NCBI GenBank assembly: GCA_905203475.1
Contig: CAJKWD010000003.1
Coordinates: 1 to 63,451, forward strand
Length of the DNA stretch: 63,451 nt
Source: an uncultured Acholeplasmataceae bacterium
GTDB lineage: Bacteria; Bacillota_I; Bacilli_A; RF39; UBA660
Direction: 5' to 3'
In this document: one piece after another, positions 5,447-56,384 of the stretch
How the letters are laid out: each line of letters begins with the position of its first letter
Position numbering within the stretch: the first letter of the stretch is position 1
Made by a program: the position numbers and the translations under genes
Notes under the pieces: model-generated
What the model was told of the DNA's origin: nothing
Database searches by the model: none
Seen by the model: only the letters and a program-made list of their open reading frames with translations

Positions 5447-5854
5447 ATGCGCTATTCCAAACAAAGAGAAACCATATTGAGTGTCGTAAATCATAGTAGT
5501 GATCATCCTACTGCAGAAATGGTTTATCAGGAGGTAAAAAAGGAGATTCCTAATATCAGTCTAGGAACAGTATACCGTAATTTGAATGCTCTAGCAGATG
5601 CATCTCAAATCAAAAGAATTAGTATTCCAAAAGATGTTGATCATTATGATCACCGCCATGATGAACATTATCATTTTTGTTGTACAGAATGTCATCAATT
5701 ATATGATTTGCCAGGGACTACAATTTACCAATTAATTCATCAGTTAGAACAAGAAGAAATGGTAAAGATTGTGGATTATGAAGTTCTCTTTTATGGAATC
5801 TGCACAAAGTGTCTAAAAGGAAAGGAAGAGAGTTATGGAATTAAAAGGAAGTAA
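5447..5854 (+). CDS. Fur-family transcriptional regulator (PerR-like)
   Basis: R..I......HP.A..VY......[11 protein letters not shown] winged-helix signature, HxH and two CxxC pairs. Sits at the head of an rbr/SOR operon. Confidence 0.85.
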
Positions 5855-6374
5855 AACAGAACAAAATTTAATGACTGCATTTGCAGGAGAAAGTCAAGCA
5901 AGAAATAAATATACTTATTTCGCTTCAAAAGCTAAAAAAGAAGGATTTGAACAAATTGCTGCAATTTTTGAAGAAACTGCTAACAATGAAAAAGAACATG
6001 CTAAAATGTGGTTTAAATTATTAGAAGGTGGACAAATTAAATCAACTGCTGAAAACTTACTAGCAGCTGCTGAAGGTGAAAACTACGAATGGACTGATAT
6101 GTATAAAAATATGGCAAAAGATGCAAAAGAAGAAGGTTTTGATCATATCGCATATCTATTCGAAGAAGTTGCTAAAATTGAAGAACACCATGAAAATAGA
6201 TATCGTGCATTACTTGAAAATGTAAAAGAAGAAAGAGTATTTAAAAAAGACGGAGAACAAATGTGGATTTGTAGAAATTGTGGACATGTTCATTTTGGTG
6301 CTGAAGCTCCAGAAGTTTGTCCAGTATGTGCACATCCAAAAGCATATTTTGAATTAAGATGTGAAAATTATTAA
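5835..6374 (+). CDS. rbr: Rubrerythrin
   Basis: [20 protein letters not shown] diiron four-helix-bundle motifs plus a C-terminal rubredoxin CxxC...CxxC. Confidence 0.93.
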
Positions 6375-6402
6375 TAGATAATACTTTTCATAGGAGAATA
6401 GA

Positions 6403-6765
6403 ATGATGAAGTTTTATTATGATAAAGAAAATGATATTGTTTTGCATTCTATGAATGCAAAAGAATGTCCGCAATTGGAAGAATTAGTTCCTAATACAAC
6501 GGAAGCTGCATTGGAAAAACATATTCCAATGGTAACTGCTTTAGAAAACGGTACCGCAATTCAAGTAGGAAGTACGTTGCATCCTTCTTTAGAAGAACAT
6601 TATATCGAATGGATTTATGTTGAATTAAAGAAAGGTGGAATAGAAATTCCATTTGCTTGGAATGAAGAACCAAAAGTAGTAATTCCATATGCTAAAGAAG
6701 ATATTGTAGCTGTGTATAGTTATTGTAATTTACATGGTTTATGGAAATTAGAAGATTTGTCTTAG
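6403..6765 (+). CDS. Superoxide reductase (desulfoferrodoxin/neelaredoxin family, 1Fe class)
   Basis: EKHIP, HP..EEHYI.WI and C.LHG.W ligand motifs. Confidence 0.8.
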   Translation: MMKFYYDKENDIVLHSMNAKECPQLEELVPNTTEAALEKHIPMVTALENGTAIQVGSTLHPSLEEHYIEWIYVELKKGGIEIPFAWNEEPKVVIPYAKEDIVAVYSYCNLHGLWKLEDLS

Positions 6766-8222: not shown

Positions 8223-8352
8223 ATTTCTCTCCTTTTTTTGTGAAACGACTCATATTATACCACATATTTTTATCATGTTCAAATTTTTTGACATCATACA
8301 TGTAAAGTCATGTTTTTGGGAAAATAGGTGATACTAGTTATTGGTGAGATAT

Positions 8353-9135
8353 ATGAAGATATTATATACTGGTGCAACAAGTGGAATTGCTAGGGAAGTG
8401 GTTACTTATTTAAAACACGATAGACAAATATACTGGTATTTAACTGTGCATACAAAGGAACAATTGAAACATACAAAAAAATTTTATGAACGGTGTAAAA
8501 ATATTACAGTGATGAAATTGGATATTACCAATAAAAAAGATTATCACCAATTGGATCAATTAGATATCGATCTTGTAATTCATAATGCGGCAGTTGGTTT
8601 TGGTGGTAGTCTATTTGATATACCTATAGAAAAGGTAAAAGAAAATTATGATACCAATGTTTTTGGAACATTACAATTAACACAATATTTATTTTTAAAG
8701 TTTCAACAACAAAAGCATGGTAGAATGATTTTTATGGCTTCTTTAGCGGGGATATTGCCACTTTCTTTTATTGGCAGTTATGCATCTAGTAAAGCGAGTT
8801 TGATTATGATGGCGAGGATTTTAAAGAATGAAGCAAAGTTATTAGACTTTCCATTAGATGTGATTATCATTGAACCGGGATTGTATCATACTGGCTTTAA
8901 TCAATGGTTATTTGAAAGTAAAGATACTTATATGCAGAATGATAGTTTTCAATTTCAAAGAGAGCGTATTGAAAAAAGAGAAAAATTACTGTTGCAATTT
9001 TTAGAAAAGAAAAACATGAAATCGATTGTCAAACAAATTTCTCATGCGATATATGATCCATATCCACTATCTATATATCGAGCTCCTTTTTTTCAAAGTA
9101 TAGGTGCAAAGATATATCAAATTTTATTTTGGTAA
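8353..9135 (+). CDS. SDR-family oxidoreductase
   Basis: TGATSGIA Rossmann motif, NAAVG, S...YxxxK (YASSK) catalytic motif. Confidence 0.85.
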   Translation: MKILYTGATSGIAREVVTYLKHDRQIYWYLTVHTKEQLKHTKKFYERCKNITVMKLDITNKKDYHQLDQLDIDLVIHNAAVGFGGSLFDIPIEKVKENYDTNVFGTLQLTQYLFLKFQQQKHGRMIFMASLAGILPLSFIGSYASSKASLIMMARILKNEAKLLDFPLDVIIIEPGLYHTGFNQWLFESKDTYMQNDSFQFQRERIEKREKLLLQFLEKKNMKSIVKQISHAIYDPYPLSIYRAPFFQSIGAKIYQILFW

Positions 9136-9186
9136 TTGCATTTTTCTACTTGTTTCGCTATACTAAAGAAGAAGGTAGATGATATC

Positions 9187-9660
9187 ATGAAGCAAATAGG
9201 AGTTATTATATTGGGGTGTTTTGTTTTATTATTAGCAGGATGCCAAAAACAAGAGGAGCGAGTTGTTTATGAATGCAGTTTGTGGGGAAGTTTGGAATTT
9301 TATGATGCTTCTTATGTGACTGAAATTTACAGCAAGGATCAGAAACATGTATCTAAGATTCATGTTACAAATTCTTATAGTGCTAGATGGGAAGATGTTG
9401 ATAACACAAGTTTGATGGAACAGTTAAATGCCGAAAAGTCTAGTATGTATGATACATATGAACAAGTTAGTTATGAAATTCATCAATTTGGAAATAATAT
9501 TACTGCAGAGCAGTATTTAACGTTGACAGAAAAGAATTTAAAACAGTTAGAACAAGATGAACAATATCAACAAATGATGCGTGATCACAAGCTTCCCATG
9601 GATGATTATGTCAAGTGGCTGACAAATCAAAATTATCAATGTCAAAACAAAAATAGTTGA
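9187..9660 (+). CDS. Lipoprotein, unknown function
   Basis: Signal peptide with lipobox LLAGC (MKQIGVIILGCFVLLLAGCQ). Confidence 0.65.
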   Translation: MKQIGVIILGCFVLLLAGCQKQEERVVYECSLWGSLEFYDASYVTEIYSKDQKHVSKIHVTNSYSARWEDVDNTSLMEQLNAEKSSMYDTYEQVSYEIHQFGNNITAEQYLTLTEKNLKQLEQDEQYQQMMRDHKLPMDDYVKWLTNQNYQCQNKNS

Positions 9661-9688
9661 TTGACAATCTGCTCGGATATGATATAAT
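9661..9688 (+). promoter_or_regulatory. Near-consensus extended -10 promoter driving the three tandem subunit genes
   Basis: TTGACA (9661-9666), 16-nt spacer, TGaTATAAT (9680-9688). Confidence 0.65.
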
Positions 9689-9720: not shown

Positions 9721-10224
9721 ATGGAAAAAAAGAATTATGTTATTATTGCATTAGTATGTGCCATTGCAGTTATGGCTGTTGGTTACTCATTACTTGCGCA
9801 AACATTAACAATCAATGGTACTGCTACAATCACAAGTAACTGGAATGTAGCAATTACAAATATTACTGAAGGAGATAATCAAGGTACAACAGCTACAAAT
9901 AAAACACCTGCCAAATACACTGGTACTTCAGCAACATTTGATGTTGAACTTGTAAAACCAGGCGATAAAATGGTTTACGATATTACAGTGTCAAACACAG
10001 GTACTTTAAATGCAAAATTAACAGGTCTTACTGTAAATCCATCTGTAACTGCAGAATCTGGAATTTATTATAAAGTAACTGGTGTAACACAAGATGTTAC
10101 AACATTAGATGCTGATAATACAAATACTGTTACTGTAGAAGTAGGATGGGCAGCTGGAGATACAACAACTCCAACAGAAAAAACTGTTCCATTAACAGTA
10201 AATTTAGTTTATACACAATATTAG
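9721..10224 (+). CDS. TasA/camelysin-like small secreted subunit, paralog 1
   Basis: N-terminal signal/anchor, conserved TLTINGTATITSNWNVAITNITEG strand, core FDVELVKPGDKMVYDITVSNTGTLNAKL. GGAGG RBS. Confidence 0.7.
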   Translation: MEKKNYVIIALVCAIAVMAVGYSLLAQTLTINGTATITSNWNVAITNITEGDNQGTTATNKTPAKYTGTSATFDVELVKPGDKMVYDITVSNTGTLNAKLTGLTVNPSVTAESGIYYKVTGVTQDVTTLDADNTNTVTVEVGWAAGDTTTPTEKTVPLTVNLVYTQY

Positions 10225-11351: not shown

Positions 11352-12518
11352 ATGAAAAAAATAAATAGTAAAATATGGGTGGTCTATGGAATTCTAATCG
11401 TATATTTATTCTTACTTATCTTATTTCCACCCTTATTTAAATCAGGTATATATACAAAATTAATTCAACAAATTTTATGGTTTGGACTAGCTTTCTATTG
11501 TTATTATGCATCTGATAAAGAATCATTTCGGAATCGTGATAAAACAGGTAAGATCCAAATTGTAGTTATTTTTACGATTATATATCTGATGGTATACTTT
11601 GTTTTAGGATTGCTTTTTGGCTATAAAAGAAGTCCATATGCACATACCTTTTCAGCAATATTAACAAATATTTGGGTATTTATTCCAGTTATAATGTTTC
11701 AGGAATATATCCGTGCTGTTTTGGTACGTTTTACTAAAAGAAATGAAACATTATTAGTAATCATTTTCTTGTTGTTTAGTTTGATTGAATTAAATTATGG
11801 TTCAATGGGAGCTTCTTTTGCTACCAAAGAATCAGCGTTTAAATATATTTCATCAACATTATTACCAACGTTAACAAGAAATGCTTTATTTACATATTTT
11901 GCGTTAGTATGTGATTACTGGCCGAGTATGATTTTTAGAACAGCTGTCATGGCTATGAATGTTTTATTACCAATCTTTCCAGATCTAGATTGGTTCGTTA
12001 CAGGACTTTTAGAGTTATCGACTTATGTAATTATGTTTATTAGTGTTAATTACATGAATGATCTATCAAAACGTGTAACAGTTAGAACAACTCGAAGAGC
12101 ACAACGAACGTCGAATCCAAAAGTAACAATACCATTATTGGTAGTATTATTGGTATTTGTCTGTTTCGTAGCTGGATTCTTTACTTATCGACCAATTGCA
12201 ATTGTATCAGATAGTATGGTTCCAAAATTTGCTCGTGGTGATGCAGTCGTTGTAAAAAAATTGTCTAACAAAGAGAAAAAGTCATTACAGAAAAATGATA
12301 TTATCCAATATTCTCTTGATGGTAGAACAATTGTCCATCGCATTCATAAAAAAATAAAAGATGAAAATGGAAATATTACATATCAAACAAAGGGAGATAA
12401 TAACAATGCTCCAGATGATAAATTAGTTACTTTAAAACAGGTAAAAGGAAAAGTAACATTTGTAGTTCCTTATGCCGGATGGCCATCTGTTTTAATTTAT
12501 GATTTCTTAAAGGAATAG
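11352..12518 (+). CDS. Fusion protein: polytopic membrane domain (~8 TM, unknown family) plus ER/archaeal-type signal peptidase I (SipW/Sec11-like)
   Basis: The C-terminal ~120 aa carry SDSMVP (Ser box), GDAVVV, IVHRI (His box) and TKGDNN..D. The N-terminal ~270 aa consist of consecutive hydrophobic helices. Confidence 0.8.
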   Translation: MKKINSKIWVVYGILIVYLFLLILFPPLFKSGIYTKLIQQILWFGLAFYCYYASDKESFRNRDKTGKIQIVVIFTIIYLMVYFVLGLLFGYKRSPYAHTFSAILTNIWVFIPVIMFQEYIRAVLVRFTKRNETLLVIIFLLFSLIELNYGSMGASFATKESAFKYISSTLLPTLTRNALFTYFALVCDYWPSMIFRTAVMAMNVLLPIFPDLDWFVTGLLELSTYVIMFISVNYMNDLSKRVTVRTTRRAQRTSNPKVTIPLLVVLLVFVCFVAGFFTYRPIAIVSDSMVPKFARGDAVVVKKLSNKEKKSLQKNDIIQYSLDGRTIVHRIHKKIKDENGNITYQTKGDNNNAPDDKLVTLKQVKGKVTFVVPYAGWPSVLIYDFLKE

Positions 12519-12526
12519 GTGAGAAA

Positions 12527-13612
12527 ATGAAAGATAAAAAGGGACATATCACAGAAATATTAAATACGAGACTGATGCGTTTCTTATTGATATTTCTTGC
12601 ATTAATACTTTTATTCTTATCTTTGAAAATGGGAATTGATTCTCTTTCATGGAAGAGTAAAAGAAATACAGATAATGTACTTTATTCATATAATATTAAA
12701 AAGGGATATTCTTATGCAGCAAATTTAACTCCGAATGAATTTATTGATGAGAATCCTCAAGGTATGAATCAATTATATATATCAAAGTTAATTAATAATT
12801 TTGATGTTGTGATGAATTATTCTTATTCAGCAAGCAAACCATTAAATTTAAAATATCAATATAAGATTGTTTCATCTATTGTTGGAGAATATCATAATAC
12901 TCCAGATGGTGAAAAAGCAGAAGTATGGGTAAAAGAGTTCCCTGTTACAAATCCCGTTGAAAAGACAGTGAACAATAGTAATTCATTCAATATTCAAGAG
13001 AAATTTACGGTAGATTTTCATTATTATGACAATTACGTAAAAGAATTCATGAGACAAGTCGGTGTTACAATTGATGCTTATTTAAAATTAGAGTTACAAG
13101 TAACTACTGATGGAGAATTAAAAGATAACATGAATACACTTCATGACACACAAACAGTTACCATGAAGATTCCATTAAATGAAGATGTATTTGCAATTTC
13201 TGGAGATAGTAATAAGACTGTAAATAAAAATATTTCTGGTATTGATACTTATGTTGAGAAAGTAAATCCAGGAAAACTAGTTGTATGTGTTATCATGCTT
13301 GTGATTTCCATTTCAATTTTAGCTTATGTATTACGTAATTTATTTAAAGGTGTTAAGAAAGATGAATATCAGAGTCAAAAAGATAAGATCTTAAAGGAAT
13401 ATGGAGATATCATTGTTGAGACTACAAGTCCAGTTGACTTCGGTGAATATCAAGTAATTAGTGTTAAGAACTTTAATGAAATGATTGATCTAGAAGAAGA
13501 ATTACATGTTCCAATTCTTTATTTCGAACCAGCGGTTGGTGAAGAGTCTTGGTTTATGTTAATTCATGACAAGGTACTTTATAAATATGAATTAAAACAA
13601 GGTGATGAATAA
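12527..13612 (+). CDS. Two-TM membrane protein with large external domain and cytoplasmic tail (DUF5305-like by recollection)
   Basis: TM helices at about aa 16-38 and aa 250-272. ~210-aa N/S/Y-rich loop between them and a ~90-aa acidic C-terminal tail. Only 8 nt separate it from the peptidase-fusion gene. Confidence 0.6.
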   Translation: MKDKKGHITEILNTRLMRFLLIFLALILLFLSLKMGIDSLSWKSKRNTDNVLYSYNIKKGYSYAANLTPNEFIDENPQGMNQLYISKLINNFDVVMNYSYSASKPLNLKYQYKIVSSIVGEYHNTPDGEKAEVWVKEFPVTNPVEKTVNNSNSFNIQEKFTVDFHYYDNYVKEFMRQVGVTIDAYLKLELQVTTDGELKDNMNTLHDTQTVTMKIPLNEDVFAISGDSNKTVNKNISGIDTYVEKVNPGKLVVCVIMLVISISILAYVLRNLFKGVKKDEYQSQKDKILKEYGDIIVETTSPVDFGEYQVISVKNFNEMIDLEEELHVPILYFEPAVGEESWFMLIHDKVLYKYELKQGDE

Positions 13613-13652
13613 TACCTTGTTTTTTTATTCTGGAAGCCCATTATAAAAATAT

Positions 13653-13681
13653 TTGAAATATAATATACATTGTGGTACAAT
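13653..13681 (+). promoter_or_regulatory. Extended -10 promoter for the fourth subunit gene
   Basis: TTGAAA (13653-13658), 17-nt spacer, TGgTACAAT (13673-13681). It follows the hairpin terminator of the preceding gene. Confidence 0.55.
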
Positions 13682-13708
13682 GATAGTATAAAGTACGGAG
13701 GTATGAAT

Positions 13709-14218
13709 ATGAATAAAAAAGCGGGTAAAAATACCGTCATTGGATTTTTAGTTGTTGCAATTTTAATTATGGCAGCGGGATATGCACTTTTAAGCTCTCA
13801 GTTAAAGATTACTGGAACAGCTGAGGTTACAAGTAGTTGGAATGTTGCAATTACTGCTATTACAGAAGGTACTGCAATTGGTACGGCTAAAAATAGAACC
13901 CCAGCAACATCAACAGGTACAACAGCAACATTTGATGTTGAATTGCAAAAACCAGGAGATAGTATGACTTATGATATTACTATTTCAAATAAAGGATCAT
14001 TAAATGCTGTATTAGATTCTATGGTAATTACACCTGGTGAAGGTGGCAGTGAGGCAATTACATATTCAGTTACTGGAGTAACCAAAGGAACACGATTAGA
14101 TGTAGATACAACAAATACTGTAACAGTAAAAGTAGAATGGGATGATAGTCTTTCTACTATGCCAGAAGTTACTACTAAGACATTAACAGTTACTTTAAAT
14201 TATGTACAACAAGATTAA
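13709..14218 (+). CDS. TasA/camelysin-like small secreted subunit, divergent paralog 4
   Basis: Same layout: LKITGTAEVTSSWNVAITAITEG and FDVELQKPGDSMTYDITISNKGSLNAVL. The ATG at 13709 is 7 nt after GGAGG. Confidence 0.7.
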   Translation: MNKKAGKNTVIGFLVVAILIMAAGYALLSSQLKITGTAEVTSSWNVAITAITEGTAIGTAKNRTPATSTGTTATFDVELQKPGDSMTYDITISNKGSLNAVLDSMVITPGEGGSEAITYSVTGVTKGTRLDVDTTNTVTVKVEWDDSLSTMPEVTTKTLTVTLNYVQQD

Positions 14219-14278
14219 GGCTTTATTTGGCCTTTTTTATTTGTTATGATATAATACCTTGTAGATAGGAGAGTAGTT

Positions 14279-16369
14279 ATGGGAAAGAAGATGATTTTAG
14301 CAACAACTTTATTAGTTGCTCTTCCAGCAACTCATGTAAATGCGTTAGAGGAAAAAGCAACTGTAAGTGAAATACCGGAAACATCAATCCAACAATCACA
14401 AGAGCAAGAAAAAGTAGAGACTCCAAATGAATCCAATACAAATTCTGAATATACAGAATCAACAATTCCTGAGGTACCAGAAGAAACAACGACAAATAAT
14501 CAAGTAGTAACGGAACAACCTAGTGAATCACCTGTTATTTCTGTAAAATTAACAGGATTTCAAGTGATAAATGGTGAGACTTATTATTTTGATGAGCCTG
14601 GTCATAAAGTAACAGGATTACATAAAATTGGAGATTTTAAATATTATTTTGAAGCAGATGGTAGATTATTTAAGGATGGTTTTAAAGTACTAGATGGTAA
14701 TACCTATTTCTTTAGTCGCGTTGATGGAAGAATGAGAACAGGAATGTTTGAAGTAGATACGCCGTTAAATATGTATTATTTTGATGAGACAACAGGTATT
14801 ATGCAAACAGGATTACATAAAATTGGGGAATACACTTATTACTTTGAAAGTGATGGAAAATTATTTCATAATGGTGTCAAAGAAATCAATGGTAAAAAAT
14901 ATTTCTTTAGTAGAGTAGATGGACGTATGCGTTATGGATTATTTGAAGTAGATACGCCGAACAATTACTATTACTTTGATGAGAATACTGGCGAAATGAT
15001 TACTGGATTACAAAAAATTGGAACATATTACTACTATTTTGAAGAAAATGGCTCATTATATCGTAATGGATTTAAAGTGTTAAATGGTAATACTTATTTC
15101 TTTAGTCGTGTCGATGGTAGAATGAGAACCGGAATGTTTGAAGTAGATACGCCGTTAAATATGTATTATTTTGATGAGACAACAGGTATTATGCAAACAG
15201 GATTACATAAAATTGGGGAATACACTTATTACTTTGAAAGTGATGGAAAATTATTTCATAATGGTGTCAAAGAAATCAATGGTAAAAAATATTTCTTTAG
15301 TAGAGTAGATGGACGTATGCGTTATGGATTATTTGAAGTAGATACGCCGAACAATTACTATTACTTTGATGAGAATACTGGCGAAATGATTACTGGATTA
15401 AAGAAGATTGGAGATAAATATTATTATTTTGAAGAAAATGGTCCATTATATCGTGGGGGATTTAAAGTACTAGATGGTAAAACTTATTTCTTTAGTCGTG
15501 TTGATGGTAATCGACGTACTGGAATGTTTAGCATAGACGGTGTTTATTACTATTTTGATGAAAACTCTGGAGAAATGCAAACAGGATATCAAGTAATTAA
15601 TGGAATGACATATTATTTCAACGAAGATGGTTCATTATATAATGGCTTTTACACGGTCAATGGGAATAAATATTACATGCAACCAGATGGTACTAGAGCA
15701 GTTGGTTGGCATACTTTGCAAGGAGTGAAATATTACTTTAATGCTAATGGTATGTTAATTGCTAGTAATGCGAAATTTATTATCGATGTTTCCAGTTGGC
15801 AAGGGGTCATTGATTGGGATGCAGTAAAAGCAGAAGGTAAAGTAGATGGTGTCATTCTACGTATGGCAATTAATGATGTTTTAGTAGATACACAATTTGA
15901 ACGTAATTTAAGAGAATTACAACGTTTGGGTATACCTTTTGGTGTTTATCTTTATAGTTATGCGGAAAATGGGACAGAAGCAAAAATGGAAGCTGATTGG
16001 ATGGTAACATTACTTAGAAGATATAATATTCAACCTGCTTTAGGAGTTTATTATGATATTGAAGAGTGGACCCATTTAACACCAAGTGATTTTGATTCAA
16101 TTATTCCTACTTTTGTAAATACAGTAAAACAAGCAGGATATTCTAATGTTGGTATTTATGCTTCTAAAAACTATATTAATACTTATTTTAGCGATGCGGT
16201 GAAGCCATATGTTACTTGGGTAGCACAATATTATTATCAATGTAATTATCAAGGAAGTTATCAAATGTGGCAATATGGTGGTGGAAATGAAGGAGAATAT
16301 GTTGCTGGTATTAATGGTAGAGTTGATTCTAATGTATGGAGTGACTCCTTCGAAAAAATTGTTTCATAA
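14279..16369 (+). CDS. Secreted GH25 muramidase (lysozyme) with N-terminal cell-wall/choline-binding-type repeats
   Basis: Signal peptide, then ~20 aromatic-rich ~20-aa repeats (G..YYFD..G.M.TG). C-terminal IIDVSSWQG.IDW...K....GVILR GH25 signature. Confidence 0.85.
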   Translation: MGKKMILATTLLVALPATHVNALEEKATVSEIPETSIQQSQEQEKVETPNESNTNSEYTESTIPEVPEETTTNNQVVTEQPSESPVISVKLTGFQVINGETYYFDEPGHKVTGLHKIGDFKYYFEADGRLFKDGFKVLDGNTYFFSRVDGRMRTGMFEVDTPLNMYYFDETTGIMQTGLHKIGEYTYYFESDGKLFHNGVKEINGKKYFFSRVDGRMRYGLFEVDTPNNYYYFDENTGEMITGLQKIGTYYYYFEENGSLYRNGFKVLNGNTYFFSRVDGRMRTGMFEVDTPLNMYYFDETTGIMQTGLHKIGEYTYYFESDGKLFHNGVKEINGKKYFFSRVDGRMRYGLFEVDTPNNYYYFDENTGEMITGLKKIGDKYYYFEENGPLYRGGFKVLDGKTYFFSRVDGNRRTGMFSIDGVYYYFDENSGEMQTGYQVINGMTYYFNEDGSLYNGFYTVNGNKYYMQPDGTRAVGWHTLQGVKYYFNANGMLIASNAKFIIDVSSWQGVIDWDAVKAEGKVDGVILRMAINDVLVDTQFERNLRELQRLGIPFGVYLYSYAENGTEAKMEADWMVTLLRRYNIQPALGVYYDIEEWTHLTPSDFDSIIPTFVNTVKQAGYSNVGIYASKNYINTYFSDAVKPYVTWVAQYYYQCNYQGSYQMWQYGGGNEGEYVAGINGRVDSNVWSDSFEKIVS
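14681..15460 (+). repeat. Intragenic tandem duplication, 390-bp unit x2 (third copy degenerate)
   Basis: 14741-15010 is identical to 15131-15400 by direct reading. The flanks differ by a few substitutions. Confidence 0.9.
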
Positions 16370-16489: not shown

Positions 16490-16566
16490 GGCGATGTAGC
16501 TCAGCTGGCTAGAGCGTCTGGTTCATACCCAGAAGGTCGAGGGTTCGATCCCCCCCGTCGCTACCA
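16490..16566 (+). tRNA. tRNA-Met (anticodon CAT), 3' CCA encoded
   Basis: Cloverleaf readable by eye: acceptor GGCGATG/CGTCGCT, D-arm GCTC-AGCTGGCTA-GAGC, anticodon stem TCTGG/CCAGA with loop TTCATAC, T-loop TTCGATC. A terminator hairpin follows. CAT could also be an Ile-lysidine or initiator tRNA. Confidence 0.85.
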
Positions 16567-56310: not shown

Positions 56311-56384
56311 CTCCTTGTAGCTCAGTTGGATAGAGCGCAGGTCTCCGAAGCCTGAGGTCATGGGTTCAATTCCCGTCAAGGAGG
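56311..56384 (+). tRNA. tRNA-Arg (anticodon CCG), no encoded CCA
   Basis: Acceptor CTCCTTG/CAAGGAG, D-arm GCTC-AGTTGGATA-GAGC, anticodon stem CAGGT/GCCTG with loop CTCCGAA, T-arm ATGGG-TTCAATT-CCCGT. The 5' boundary is uncertain by 1 nt. Confidence 0.8.

Follow-up and report, generated by a model that had tools for sequence, protein, structure and literature searches.

Prokaryotic type I signal peptidases are usually seen as enzymes with a single membrane anchor, and signal peptidases organized as multi-subunit membrane complexes are seen as eukaryotic only. Why, then, should a bacterial signal peptidase begin with eight additional membrane helices? The question is raised by a gene in contig CAJKWD010000003.1 (assembly GCA_905203475.1) of an uncultured Acholeplasmataceae bacterium, of which positions 1 to 63,451 were analyzed; this whole stretch of 63,451 nucleotides (nt) is called the window below. 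The open reading frame (ORF) in question occupies 11352..12518 of the + strand, has an ATG start and specifies a product of 388 amino acids (aa). It lies among genes for fiber subunits related to AbpX and TasA, and directly upstream of a gene for a DUF5305 protein. The answer favored here, which we place slightly above an even chance, is that the enzyme would be a signal peptidase dedicated to those subunits, that its extra helices would act as a scaffold within a holoenzyme resembling the eukaryotic signal peptidase complex (SPC), and that the N-terminal domain would recognize the signal peptide of the subunits.

The fused gene and its two domains

The C-terminal third of the protein is classified from its sequence as a type I signal peptidase of the archaeal/endoplasmic reticulum (ER) kind (Sec11/SipW, MEROPS S26B). 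Residues 262-380 match TIGR02228, the model for archaeal-type signal peptidase I, with E=1.5e-22 and 80.2 bits (cutoff 51.85), and PF10502 is matched at 25.1 bits, above its gathering cutoff of 22.9. Residues ~280-387 align with human SEC11A (7p2p_A) at E=3e-11, an alignment that pairs SDS288M with SGSM, VH329R with VHR and KGD349NN with KGDNN. Ser288, His329, Asp349 and Asp355 are invariant in 14 homologs with identities down to 30%, and it is the Ser/His pair, rather than Ser/Lys, together with a conserved Asp in register with Sec11, that identifies the enzyme as archaeal/ER-type. The initial annotation had described the gene product as a Ser/His peptidase of the SipW/Sec11 type joined to an eight-helix membrane domain that belongs to no known family, and this description holds, with a domain of about 250 aa. 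All four of the boxes it had picked out (IVSDSMVP, GDAVVV, IVHRIHK and TKGDNNNAPDD) are found in the ORF, and the single anchor helix and basic linker that it placed before the catalytic domain are both present. Scored against the SipW equivalog model NF046067, the peptidase reaches 67.4 bits where the cutoff is 190; it is best regarded as a relative of SipW and not as a SipW ortholog. No second signal peptidase was detected in the window by phmmer or by a scan for LepB motifs.

The N-terminal domain consists of eight predicted transmembrane (TM) helices, on which two AlphaFold2 models agree (residues 6-24, 32-53, 64-89, 100-126/128, 132-150, 159-187, 190-205 and 214-241/245). A model of this domain alone, computed from 45 diverse sequences, has a mean predicted local distance difference test (pLDDT) score of 95 and a predicted template modeling score (pTM) of 0.91, and in it the outer loops at 91-93 and 208-210 pair as short strands. 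With the anchor of the peptidase the number of membrane-length helices comes to nine, the C-terminal helix at 378-387 being too short to span the membrane. The loops predicted to lie inside contain 11 lysine and arginine residues, and those predicted to lie outside contain 3. The predicted arrangement fits a topology in which the N-terminus is inside, the eight helices are followed by an inside linker, the anchor runs from inside to outside, and the peptidase domain lies outside.

Conservation was assessed over 119 diverse N-terminal domains. G86, G90, N106, E118, R121, Y182, P207 and P210 are each conserved at 89% or more, and most of the highly conserved residues sit at the outer ends of TM3 and TM4 and in two outer loops; the outer loops are only 7-10 residues long. 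N106, E118 and R121 are polar residues of TM4 conserved at 98-99%, with E118 and R121 at 98% each. Among these same sequences, no His, Cys, Ser or Asp in the domain reaches 70% conservation.

Neither Pfam nor NCBIfam holds a model that matches the domain, and a comparison of 45 diverse members with Pfam at E<=10 gave no consistent family. A profile of the domain found only a chance match to an ABC transporter (E=0.31) among PDB sequences, and the pLDDT-95 model found no match among PDB folds (best E=0.17, TM-score at most 0.23). With the full-length model, Foldseek matches were confined to the peptidase domain (SEC11A/C and SipA of S. pyogenes). The structure prediction and Foldseek comparison proposed in the initial annotation thus leave the domain without a known family. 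Comparison of the two halves by hhalign (E=0.037 over 25 columns) gave no sign of an internal 4+4 duplication, and a search of a plasmid collection with the domain gave no match.

Two families of polytopic membrane proteins were considered as relatives and rejected. The element FQEYIRAV had been likened to the EExxxR motif of CPBP/CAAX proteases; the element itself is real, and its E118 and R121 are strongly conserved, but the link to that family fails. Q117 is not conserved, so that the conserved motif is ExxR and not EExxxR; the FxxxH and HxxxN motifs are absent, as had already been noted of the CPBP His motifs; and none of the 45 members matches CPBP/Rce1 (PF02517). Rce1 is among the solved structures, and no fold match to it was found. 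The exosortases and archaeosortases (EpsH, ArtA) are polytopic proteins recognized by a conserved catalytic set of Cys, Arg and His. The domain has no conserved Cys or His and no Pfam match to them, and the likeness is confined to the notion of a polytopic protein acting on surface proteins.

The fusion of the two domains is widespread. When residues 1-257 were used in a word-indexed search, 48 homologs were returned, all 48 of them 361-398 aa long and most of them with a peptidase domain annotated by Pfam. An exhaustive search with a hidden Markov model of the domain, an 11-sequence profile, retrieved 1,488 representative clusters (at 50% identity) at E<=1e-3 and 1,099 at E<=1e-10. Among the 148 best new representatives, 116 have lengths of 360-400 aa, and 108 of these 116 keep the S.SM, HR and GD.N boxes. 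A scan of one genome per GTDB species with the single motif [LV]PI[FI]P[DN]L[DN]W, which gives a lower bound, located the fusion in 46 species genomes. Nearly all of the hosts are metagenome-assembled genomes (MAGs) from gut or rumen, labeled as uncultured Bacilli, Tenericutes or Mycoplasmatota, CAG:822 or Candidatus Coprosoma. Among them are MAG records at chromosome level, ~1.3 and 1.5 Mb in size, with a hifiasm or metaFlye assembly named in the title; OZ006994.1, the closest, has 97% identity in the N-terminal domain.

At every locus with a complete gene the two domains are encoded in a single ORF, and no stand-alone N-terminal domain was seen among the homologs. A split version in two adjacent genes, for which the initial annotation had suggested a search, was accordingly not found, whereas the conservation of the fusion beside TasA-like genes, its other suggestion, was borne out across the related loci. 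The gene might nonetheless be supposed an artifact or a one-off event, with a membrane-protein gene joined to a short sipW, or a transporter fused to it in this genome only. Canonical SipW and Sec11 are indeed only ~190 aa long, and 31 of the 148 best new representatives have fewer than 340 aa; these short sequences, however, end at scattered internal positions, like fragments cut off at contig ends. A fusion created by assembly or frameshift is ruled out by the 48 homologs of uniform architecture, the 46 species genomes, the chromosome-level MAGs and the 116 full-length representatives, and a common, unrelated transporter peculiar to this genome is ruled out by the same architecture in homologs and in all complete related loci. 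An accident of this kind is hardly credible.

Fiber subunits, their signal peptide and the DUF5305 gene

The neighbors of the fusion are as constant as its architecture. In the 46 species genomes, wherever the contig reaches, the gene order is always subunit(s), fusion, DUF5305, and clustering of the flanking ORFs yields only three families that are present in at least 42 of 45 loci, namely the fusion, DUF5305 and the subunit family, the last with 1-7 copies per locus of ~165-200 aa each. The DUF5305 gene was found directly downstream of the peptidase gene in 43 related loci. In 39 of these it starts between -44 and +31 nt from the peptidase stop, and in the other four after a gap of 187-633 nt; an identical 17-nt overlap of the two genes is common to nine loci. 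The close spacing and the shared overlap suggest that peptidase and DUF5305 are translationally coupled. The DUF5305 protein of the window has TM-like stretches at residues ~10-42 and 245-276, so that the ~200 aa that separate them would lie outside and a further ~85 aa on the cytoplasmic side; a PDB sequence search with it gave no match.

Four subunits are encoded in the window, three upstream of the peptidase and one downstream of DUF5305, and they just miss the Pfam threshold for camelysin/TasA. Compared with the AbpX family of Pyrodictium, the profile of the subunit family gives an hhalign probability of 96.8% (E=2.7e-10 over 153 columns). The relationship shows at the profile level only: a window subunit compared with AbpX by pairwise BLAST gave no significant result, and a PDB sequence search with a subunit gave no match. 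Neither the AbpX-like nature of the subunits nor the DUF5305 partner gene had been noted in the initial annotation.

The signal peptide of these subunits is conserved far beyond what is expected of a generic Sec signal. In an alignment of one window subunit with 104 subunit ORFs taken from the 46 related loci (105 sequences), M20 is conserved at 99%, G23 at 93%, Y24 at 98%, A25 at 93% and A26 at 87%, within the pattern M20, x, x, G23, Y24, A25, A26, [F/L]27, [A/S]28, [Q/T]29. A donor-strand-like segment follows (L31-T-I33-N-G35-T-A37), and then W43. Alignment with AbpX, in which TYA precedes the cleavage site and QWSETLSLSATIS follows it, points to cleavage after GYA, and the -3/-1 rule equally allows cleavage between A-[F/L]-A and Q. 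The initial annotation had suggested that the N-terminal domain could be a platform for docking or polymerization, or a channel; among these conjectural roles, such an unusually conserved cognate signal peptide favors docking over a channel.

The likeness to AbpX has its limits. Given the GYA site, position 2 of the mature subunits, aromatic in AbpX, is occupied by F (57%) or L (43%), and position 4, an acidic Ca-binding residue in AbpX, by Q, T or S. The subunits have isoelectric points of 4.3-4.7 and contain 8-11% Asp+Glu, as against ~15% in AbpX. The Ca2+-dependent donor strand by which AbpX proper is known is not found in them and, because of the residue at position 4 and the low content of Asp+Glu, they are classed on sequence grounds as AbpX homologs that lack the AbpX calcium signature.

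Sixteen of the 46 related loci contain a further protein, absent from the window, which is encoded directly upstream of the peptidase (as at L008:7104-7991 and L010:6927-7892). It is ~295-320 aa long and has the cognate signal peptide and donor strand (..SVGYSLLSQxLSVxGTA..), followed by two CBM2 modules (PF00553, E=1.6e-23) that are joined through a linker either rich in Pro and Asp or made of GGES repeats; the acceptor jelly-roll domain is absent. This protein looks like a tip or cap adhesin of the fiber, and its presence therefore suggests that the fibers bind polysaccharide.

Known systems of similar layout and a proposed mechanism

Similar loci were described by Sleutel et al. in a preprint of January 2026, in which abpX loci are reported to carry a "ten-TM" signal peptidase I and a DUF5305 accessory protein (bioRxiv 10.64898/2026.01.04.697558). 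DUF5305 was proposed to be an accessory subunit of the peptidase (bioRxiv 10.64898/2026.01.04.697558; PMC11821415). It is at times fused to the peptidase, lies adjacent to it in most abpX loci, though not in that of P. abyssi, and has an external part described as a beta-sandwich; the AbpX fibers themselves were shown to assemble by donor-strand complementation (bioRxiv 10.64898/2026.01.04.697558). The polytopic architecture of the peptidase was remarked upon there in one sentence (bioRxiv 10.64898/2026.01.04.697558), and the architecture is functionally uncharacterized. The window peptidase shows the features of such loci, with AbpX-family neighbors, about ten TM helices and an adjacent DUF5305 gene. 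The hosts differ, those of abpX being thermophiles or clostridia and those of the window family small-genome gut Bacilli known from MAGs.

The peptidase encoded after abpX in P. abyssi (WP_338249487.1, L047:5876-7018, in the locus L047:5001-7018 of AP028907.1) allows a direct comparison. It has 380 aa, of which ~250 make up a polytopic N-terminal region that precedes a C-terminal S26 domain, and so resembles the window enzyme (388 aa) in size, in layout and in its neighboring AbpX-family subunits; its locus has no DUF5305 neighbor. The 119-sequence profile of the N-terminal domain scores 10.6 bits against this enzyme, where 2,000 shuffled sequences reach at most 5.3 and the reversed sequence -1.4. 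The alignment is collinear through GLxxGF (GxxxGF), [Q/R]ExxR and [L/F]P[I/L][F/I]P, with Thr at the place of N106. Comparison of the two N-terminal domains by hhalign gave E=0.013, with a probability of merely 3%; a database search with the P. abyssi domain found only two near-identical proteins, which makes this profile-profile test a weak one. For the same reason the archaeal polytopic domain is taken to be far more divergent than the bacterial one. The two domains may well belong to the same family.

Other systems share parts of the arrangement. SipW and Sec11 are proteins of ~190 aa with a single N-terminal anchor, SipW having a C-terminal helix as well. B. subtilis SipW and Sec11 (S26B) have the same catalytic domain and Ser/His(/Asp) chemistry as the window enzyme, which differs in its eight additional N-terminal helices. 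The tapA-sipW-tasA operon of B. subtilis likewise encodes a dedicated peptidase with fiber subunits of the TasA superfamily; the window operon has no TapA homolog and has DUF5305 instead. In the haloarchaeal Tafi system, the dedicated peptidase TafD is encoded beside the DUF5305 gene tafG and is needed for the processing of TafA (PMC11821415). Here too the genes of donor-strand fiber subunits are accompanied by those of a dedicated S26 peptidase and a DUF5305 protein, but TafD acts on Tat substrates and is built differently, with four TM helices and a second extracellular C-terminal domain in place of an N-terminal eight-helix bundle. The eukaryotic SPC (SEC11A/C, SPC12, SPC25 and SPC22/23; 7p2p, 7p2q) has a catalytic subunit homologous to the window peptidase (E=3e-11), extra TM helices around that subunit and an accessory subunit with an extracytoplasmic domain, as would the window enzyme with its DUF5305 partner. 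The extra helices are fused in cis in the window enzyme and separate in the SPC.

The reading preferred here is a dedicated S26B signal peptidase that would process the AbpX/TasA-like subunits of its own operon, the three encoded upstream and the one downstream, which are thus its presumed substrates. The subunits would be exported with their long, family-specific signal peptide and cut at the outer face of the membrane, either after GYA and before A[F/L]A, as the AbpX alignment indicates, or after A[F/L]A and before Q, as the -3/-1 rule allows. The cut would release the N-terminal donor strand (..L-T-I-N-G-T-A..), which would complete the fold of a neighboring subunit and so build an extracellular fiber. 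The eight extra helices would be a built-in membrane scaffold, most likely neither a second enzyme nor a transporter. With the anchor helix and the pair of helices of DUF5305, presumably a partner in the same complex, they would make up a holoenzyme of many helices, by analogy with the eukaryotic SPC. Recognition of the cognate signal peptide by the N-terminal domain may involve its outer-leaflet elements near the active site, namely G86xxxG90, the GYxxSPY loop, N106 and the LPIFPDLDW loop, which would bind the M-x-x-G-Y-A-A end and confer substrate selectivity.

Several points weigh against this model. Docking at the outer face alone does not explain why E118, R121 and Y182, which lie deep in the membrane and close to the inner leaflet, should be conserved. 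In the full-length AlphaFold2 model, which was built from a shallow alignment (pLDDT 76), the Ser box at residues 277-298 has a pLDDT below 50. The peptidase of abpX loci has ten TM helices according to the preprint, as against the nine counted in the window enzyme, and homology of the window domain to the archaeal AbpX-linked enzyme is weakly indicated. Finally, the domain has no sequence or fold similarity to SPC12, SPC25 or SPC22/23 (a PF06703 match at E=2.3 in 1 of 45 members is noise), and the resemblance to the eukaryotic SPC would be one of functional analogy and not of membership.

With an accident of assembly set aside, two other explanations of the N-terminal domain must be weighed. 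One, the polymerization or coupling idea of the initial annotation, overlaps with the model just given and assigns the domain an active role in assembly: the eight-helix domain and DUF5305 would form the base of the fiber and hold either the subunit added last or a precursor still tethered to the membrane, with cleavage coupled to donor-strand insertion and growth from the cell-proximal end. The donor strand begins 1-4 residues from the cleavage site, and cleavage therefore necessarily unmasks the polymerizing element; yet recombinant mature AbpX self-assembles in vitro without accessory proteins (bioRxiv 10.64898/2026.01.04.697558), and cannulae polymerize without a chaperone (PMC12518558). 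No sortase and no LPXTG or SLH anchor is encoded within the operon, according to the ORF list and a Pfam scan, and so something else is needed to hold the fiber. DUF5305 has ~200 aa outside the membrane, described as a beta-sandwich in the preprint, but the N-terminal domain is almost without extracellular mass, and its outer loops of 7-10 residues offer little with which to grip a subunit. The donor-strand-only, tip- or cap-like CBM2 protein of 16 related loci implies ordered assembly and would also suit such a base. On balance we consider this explanation possible but doubtful. The fuller proposal that the eight-helix domain, the S26B peptidase and DUF5305 make up a fiber-assembly machine, which would join an SPC-like holoenzyme, recognizing a pilin-like, family-specific signal peptide within the membrane, to cleavage coupled with donor-strand insertion at the base, and would thus be a third route to donor-strand or covalent pili beside chaperone-usher and sortase, appears unlikely.

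The other explanation grants the domain a second activity, be it the removal of the abundant cleaved signal peptides by an intramembrane hydrolase, proteolysis of the CPBP type, or a pathway for an ion such as Ca2+ by way of N106, E118 and R121. Polar residues conserved at 98-99% within TM4 would be unusual in a purely structural helix, and the assembly of AbpX is calcium-dependent (bioRxiv 10.64898/2026.01.04.697558). The subunits studied here, however, lack the acidic Ca2+-binding residue at position 4 of the donor strand, and the domain has neither a His, Cys, Ser or Asp conserved at 70% nor the EExxxR, FxxxH and HxxxN motifs of CPBP proteases. Moreover, its 45 diverse members match no protease or transporter in Pfam, and no protease, transporter or channel of solved structure resembles the confident model (best E=0.17, TM-score at most 0.23). 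A second activity is very improbable, and the dedicated peptidase with a built-in, signal-recognizing scaffold remains the preferred explanation.

The locus in its surroundings and its significance

The features of the locus are collected in Table 1. The five genes for subunits 1-3, the peptidase and DUF5305 are bracketed by the first promoter-like site and the first hairpin of the table; the promoter-like sites are consensus matches only and are not enriched over shuffled sequence in this AT-rich region.

Table 1. Features of the fiber locus, with positions in the window
Feature	Position	Strand	Basis or remark
Promoter-like site TTGACA, 16 nt, TATAAT, with TG extension	9661..9688	+	12/12 consensus matches; upstream of subunit 1
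AbpX/TasA-like fiber subunit 1, 167 aa, cognate signal peptide ..MAVGYSLLAQTLTINGTA..	9721..10224	+	PF12389 E=7e-4, just under gathering score
AbpX/TasA-like fiber subunit 2, 168 aa	10245..10751	+	
AbpX/TasA-like fiber subunit 3, 170 aa	10772..11284	+	TasA NCBIfam model E=2.5e-4, far below cutoff
N-terminal 8-TM domain, aa 1-246, orphan fold	11352..12089	+	Model pLDDT 95
Basic cytoplasmic linker VTVRTTRRAQRTSN, aa 242-255	12075..12116	+	4 Lys+Arg, 0 Asp+Glu
Signal peptidase anchor helix PKVTIPLLVVLLVFVCFV, aa 256-273, predicted inside-to-outside	12117..12170	+	AlphaFold2 model, loop charges
S26B (Sec11/SipW-type) catalytic domain	12171..12518	+	TIGR02228, SEC11A alignment
Catalytic codon Ser288	12213-12215	+	
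Catalytic codon His329	12336-12338	+	
Catalytic codon Asp349	12396-12398	+	
Codon of invariant Asp355	12414-12416	+	
DUF5305 protein, 361 aa, putative accessory subunit	12527..13612	+	PF17231 E=5e-21; 8 nt after peptidase stop
Terminator-like hairpin, end of five-gene operon	13594..13623	+	11-pair stem, then T run
Promoter-like site upstream of subunit 4	13653..13681	+	10/12 consensus matches, with TG
AbpX/TasA-like fiber subunit 4, 171 aa from ATG after GGAGG	13703..14218	+	Mechanical ORF starts at TTG 13670
Terminator-like hairpin after subunit 4	14217..14234	+	

Directly after the fiber locus, at 14279-16369, lies a gene with promoter-like and terminator-like sites of its own for a 696-aa GH25 muramidase, which has 13 choline-binding repeat matches and long near-identical internal repeats and is conserved only in the closest relatives. 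Just upstream of the operon, a 174-aa protein with a lipoprotein-like N-terminus (..LLLAGCQK..) and no Pfam match is encoded at 9136-9660, preceded by a 264-aa ORF at 8341-9135; both are conserved only in relatives whose N-terminal domain is at least 70% identical. Two ORFs at 5835-6765, read by eye from their translations, resemble rubrerythrin (179 aa) and a desulfoferrodoxin/neelaredoxin-type protein (120 aa), a pair that would fit a strict anaerobe. In an Rfam scan of the whole window at the gathering threshold, tRNA genes at 16490-16563 and 56311-56384 were the sole matches, and no rRNA was found. Along the whole window the G+C content stays within 28-36%, every 2-kb bin has a positive GC skew and the long ORFs are almost all on the + strand, a pattern consistent with one replichore (leading strand) in a small genome of low GC.

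What is added here to the earlier remark on polytopic peptidases is the size of the family, its residue signature and an orphan fold predicted with high confidence, together with the invariant gene order, the tight gene coupling, the conserved cognate signal peptide and the prevalence in small-genome gut Bacilli. As the N-terminal domain has no Pfam or NCBIfam model, these genes are currently recognized merely as signal peptidase I. A family of at least 1,488 clusters at 50% identity offers a tractable model of how accessory membrane helices shape the selection of signal peptides, and is relevant to the processing, and perhaps the anchoring, of matrix fibers of the TasA/AbpX type. Should the assembly machine described above prove true, it would be widespread in uncultured small-genome gut Bacilli and would display carbohydrate-binding CBM2 tips in some lineages. 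The fibers of such operons, some of them with CBM2 tips, may be the main organelle of adhesion or colonization in these uncultured gut Bacilli.

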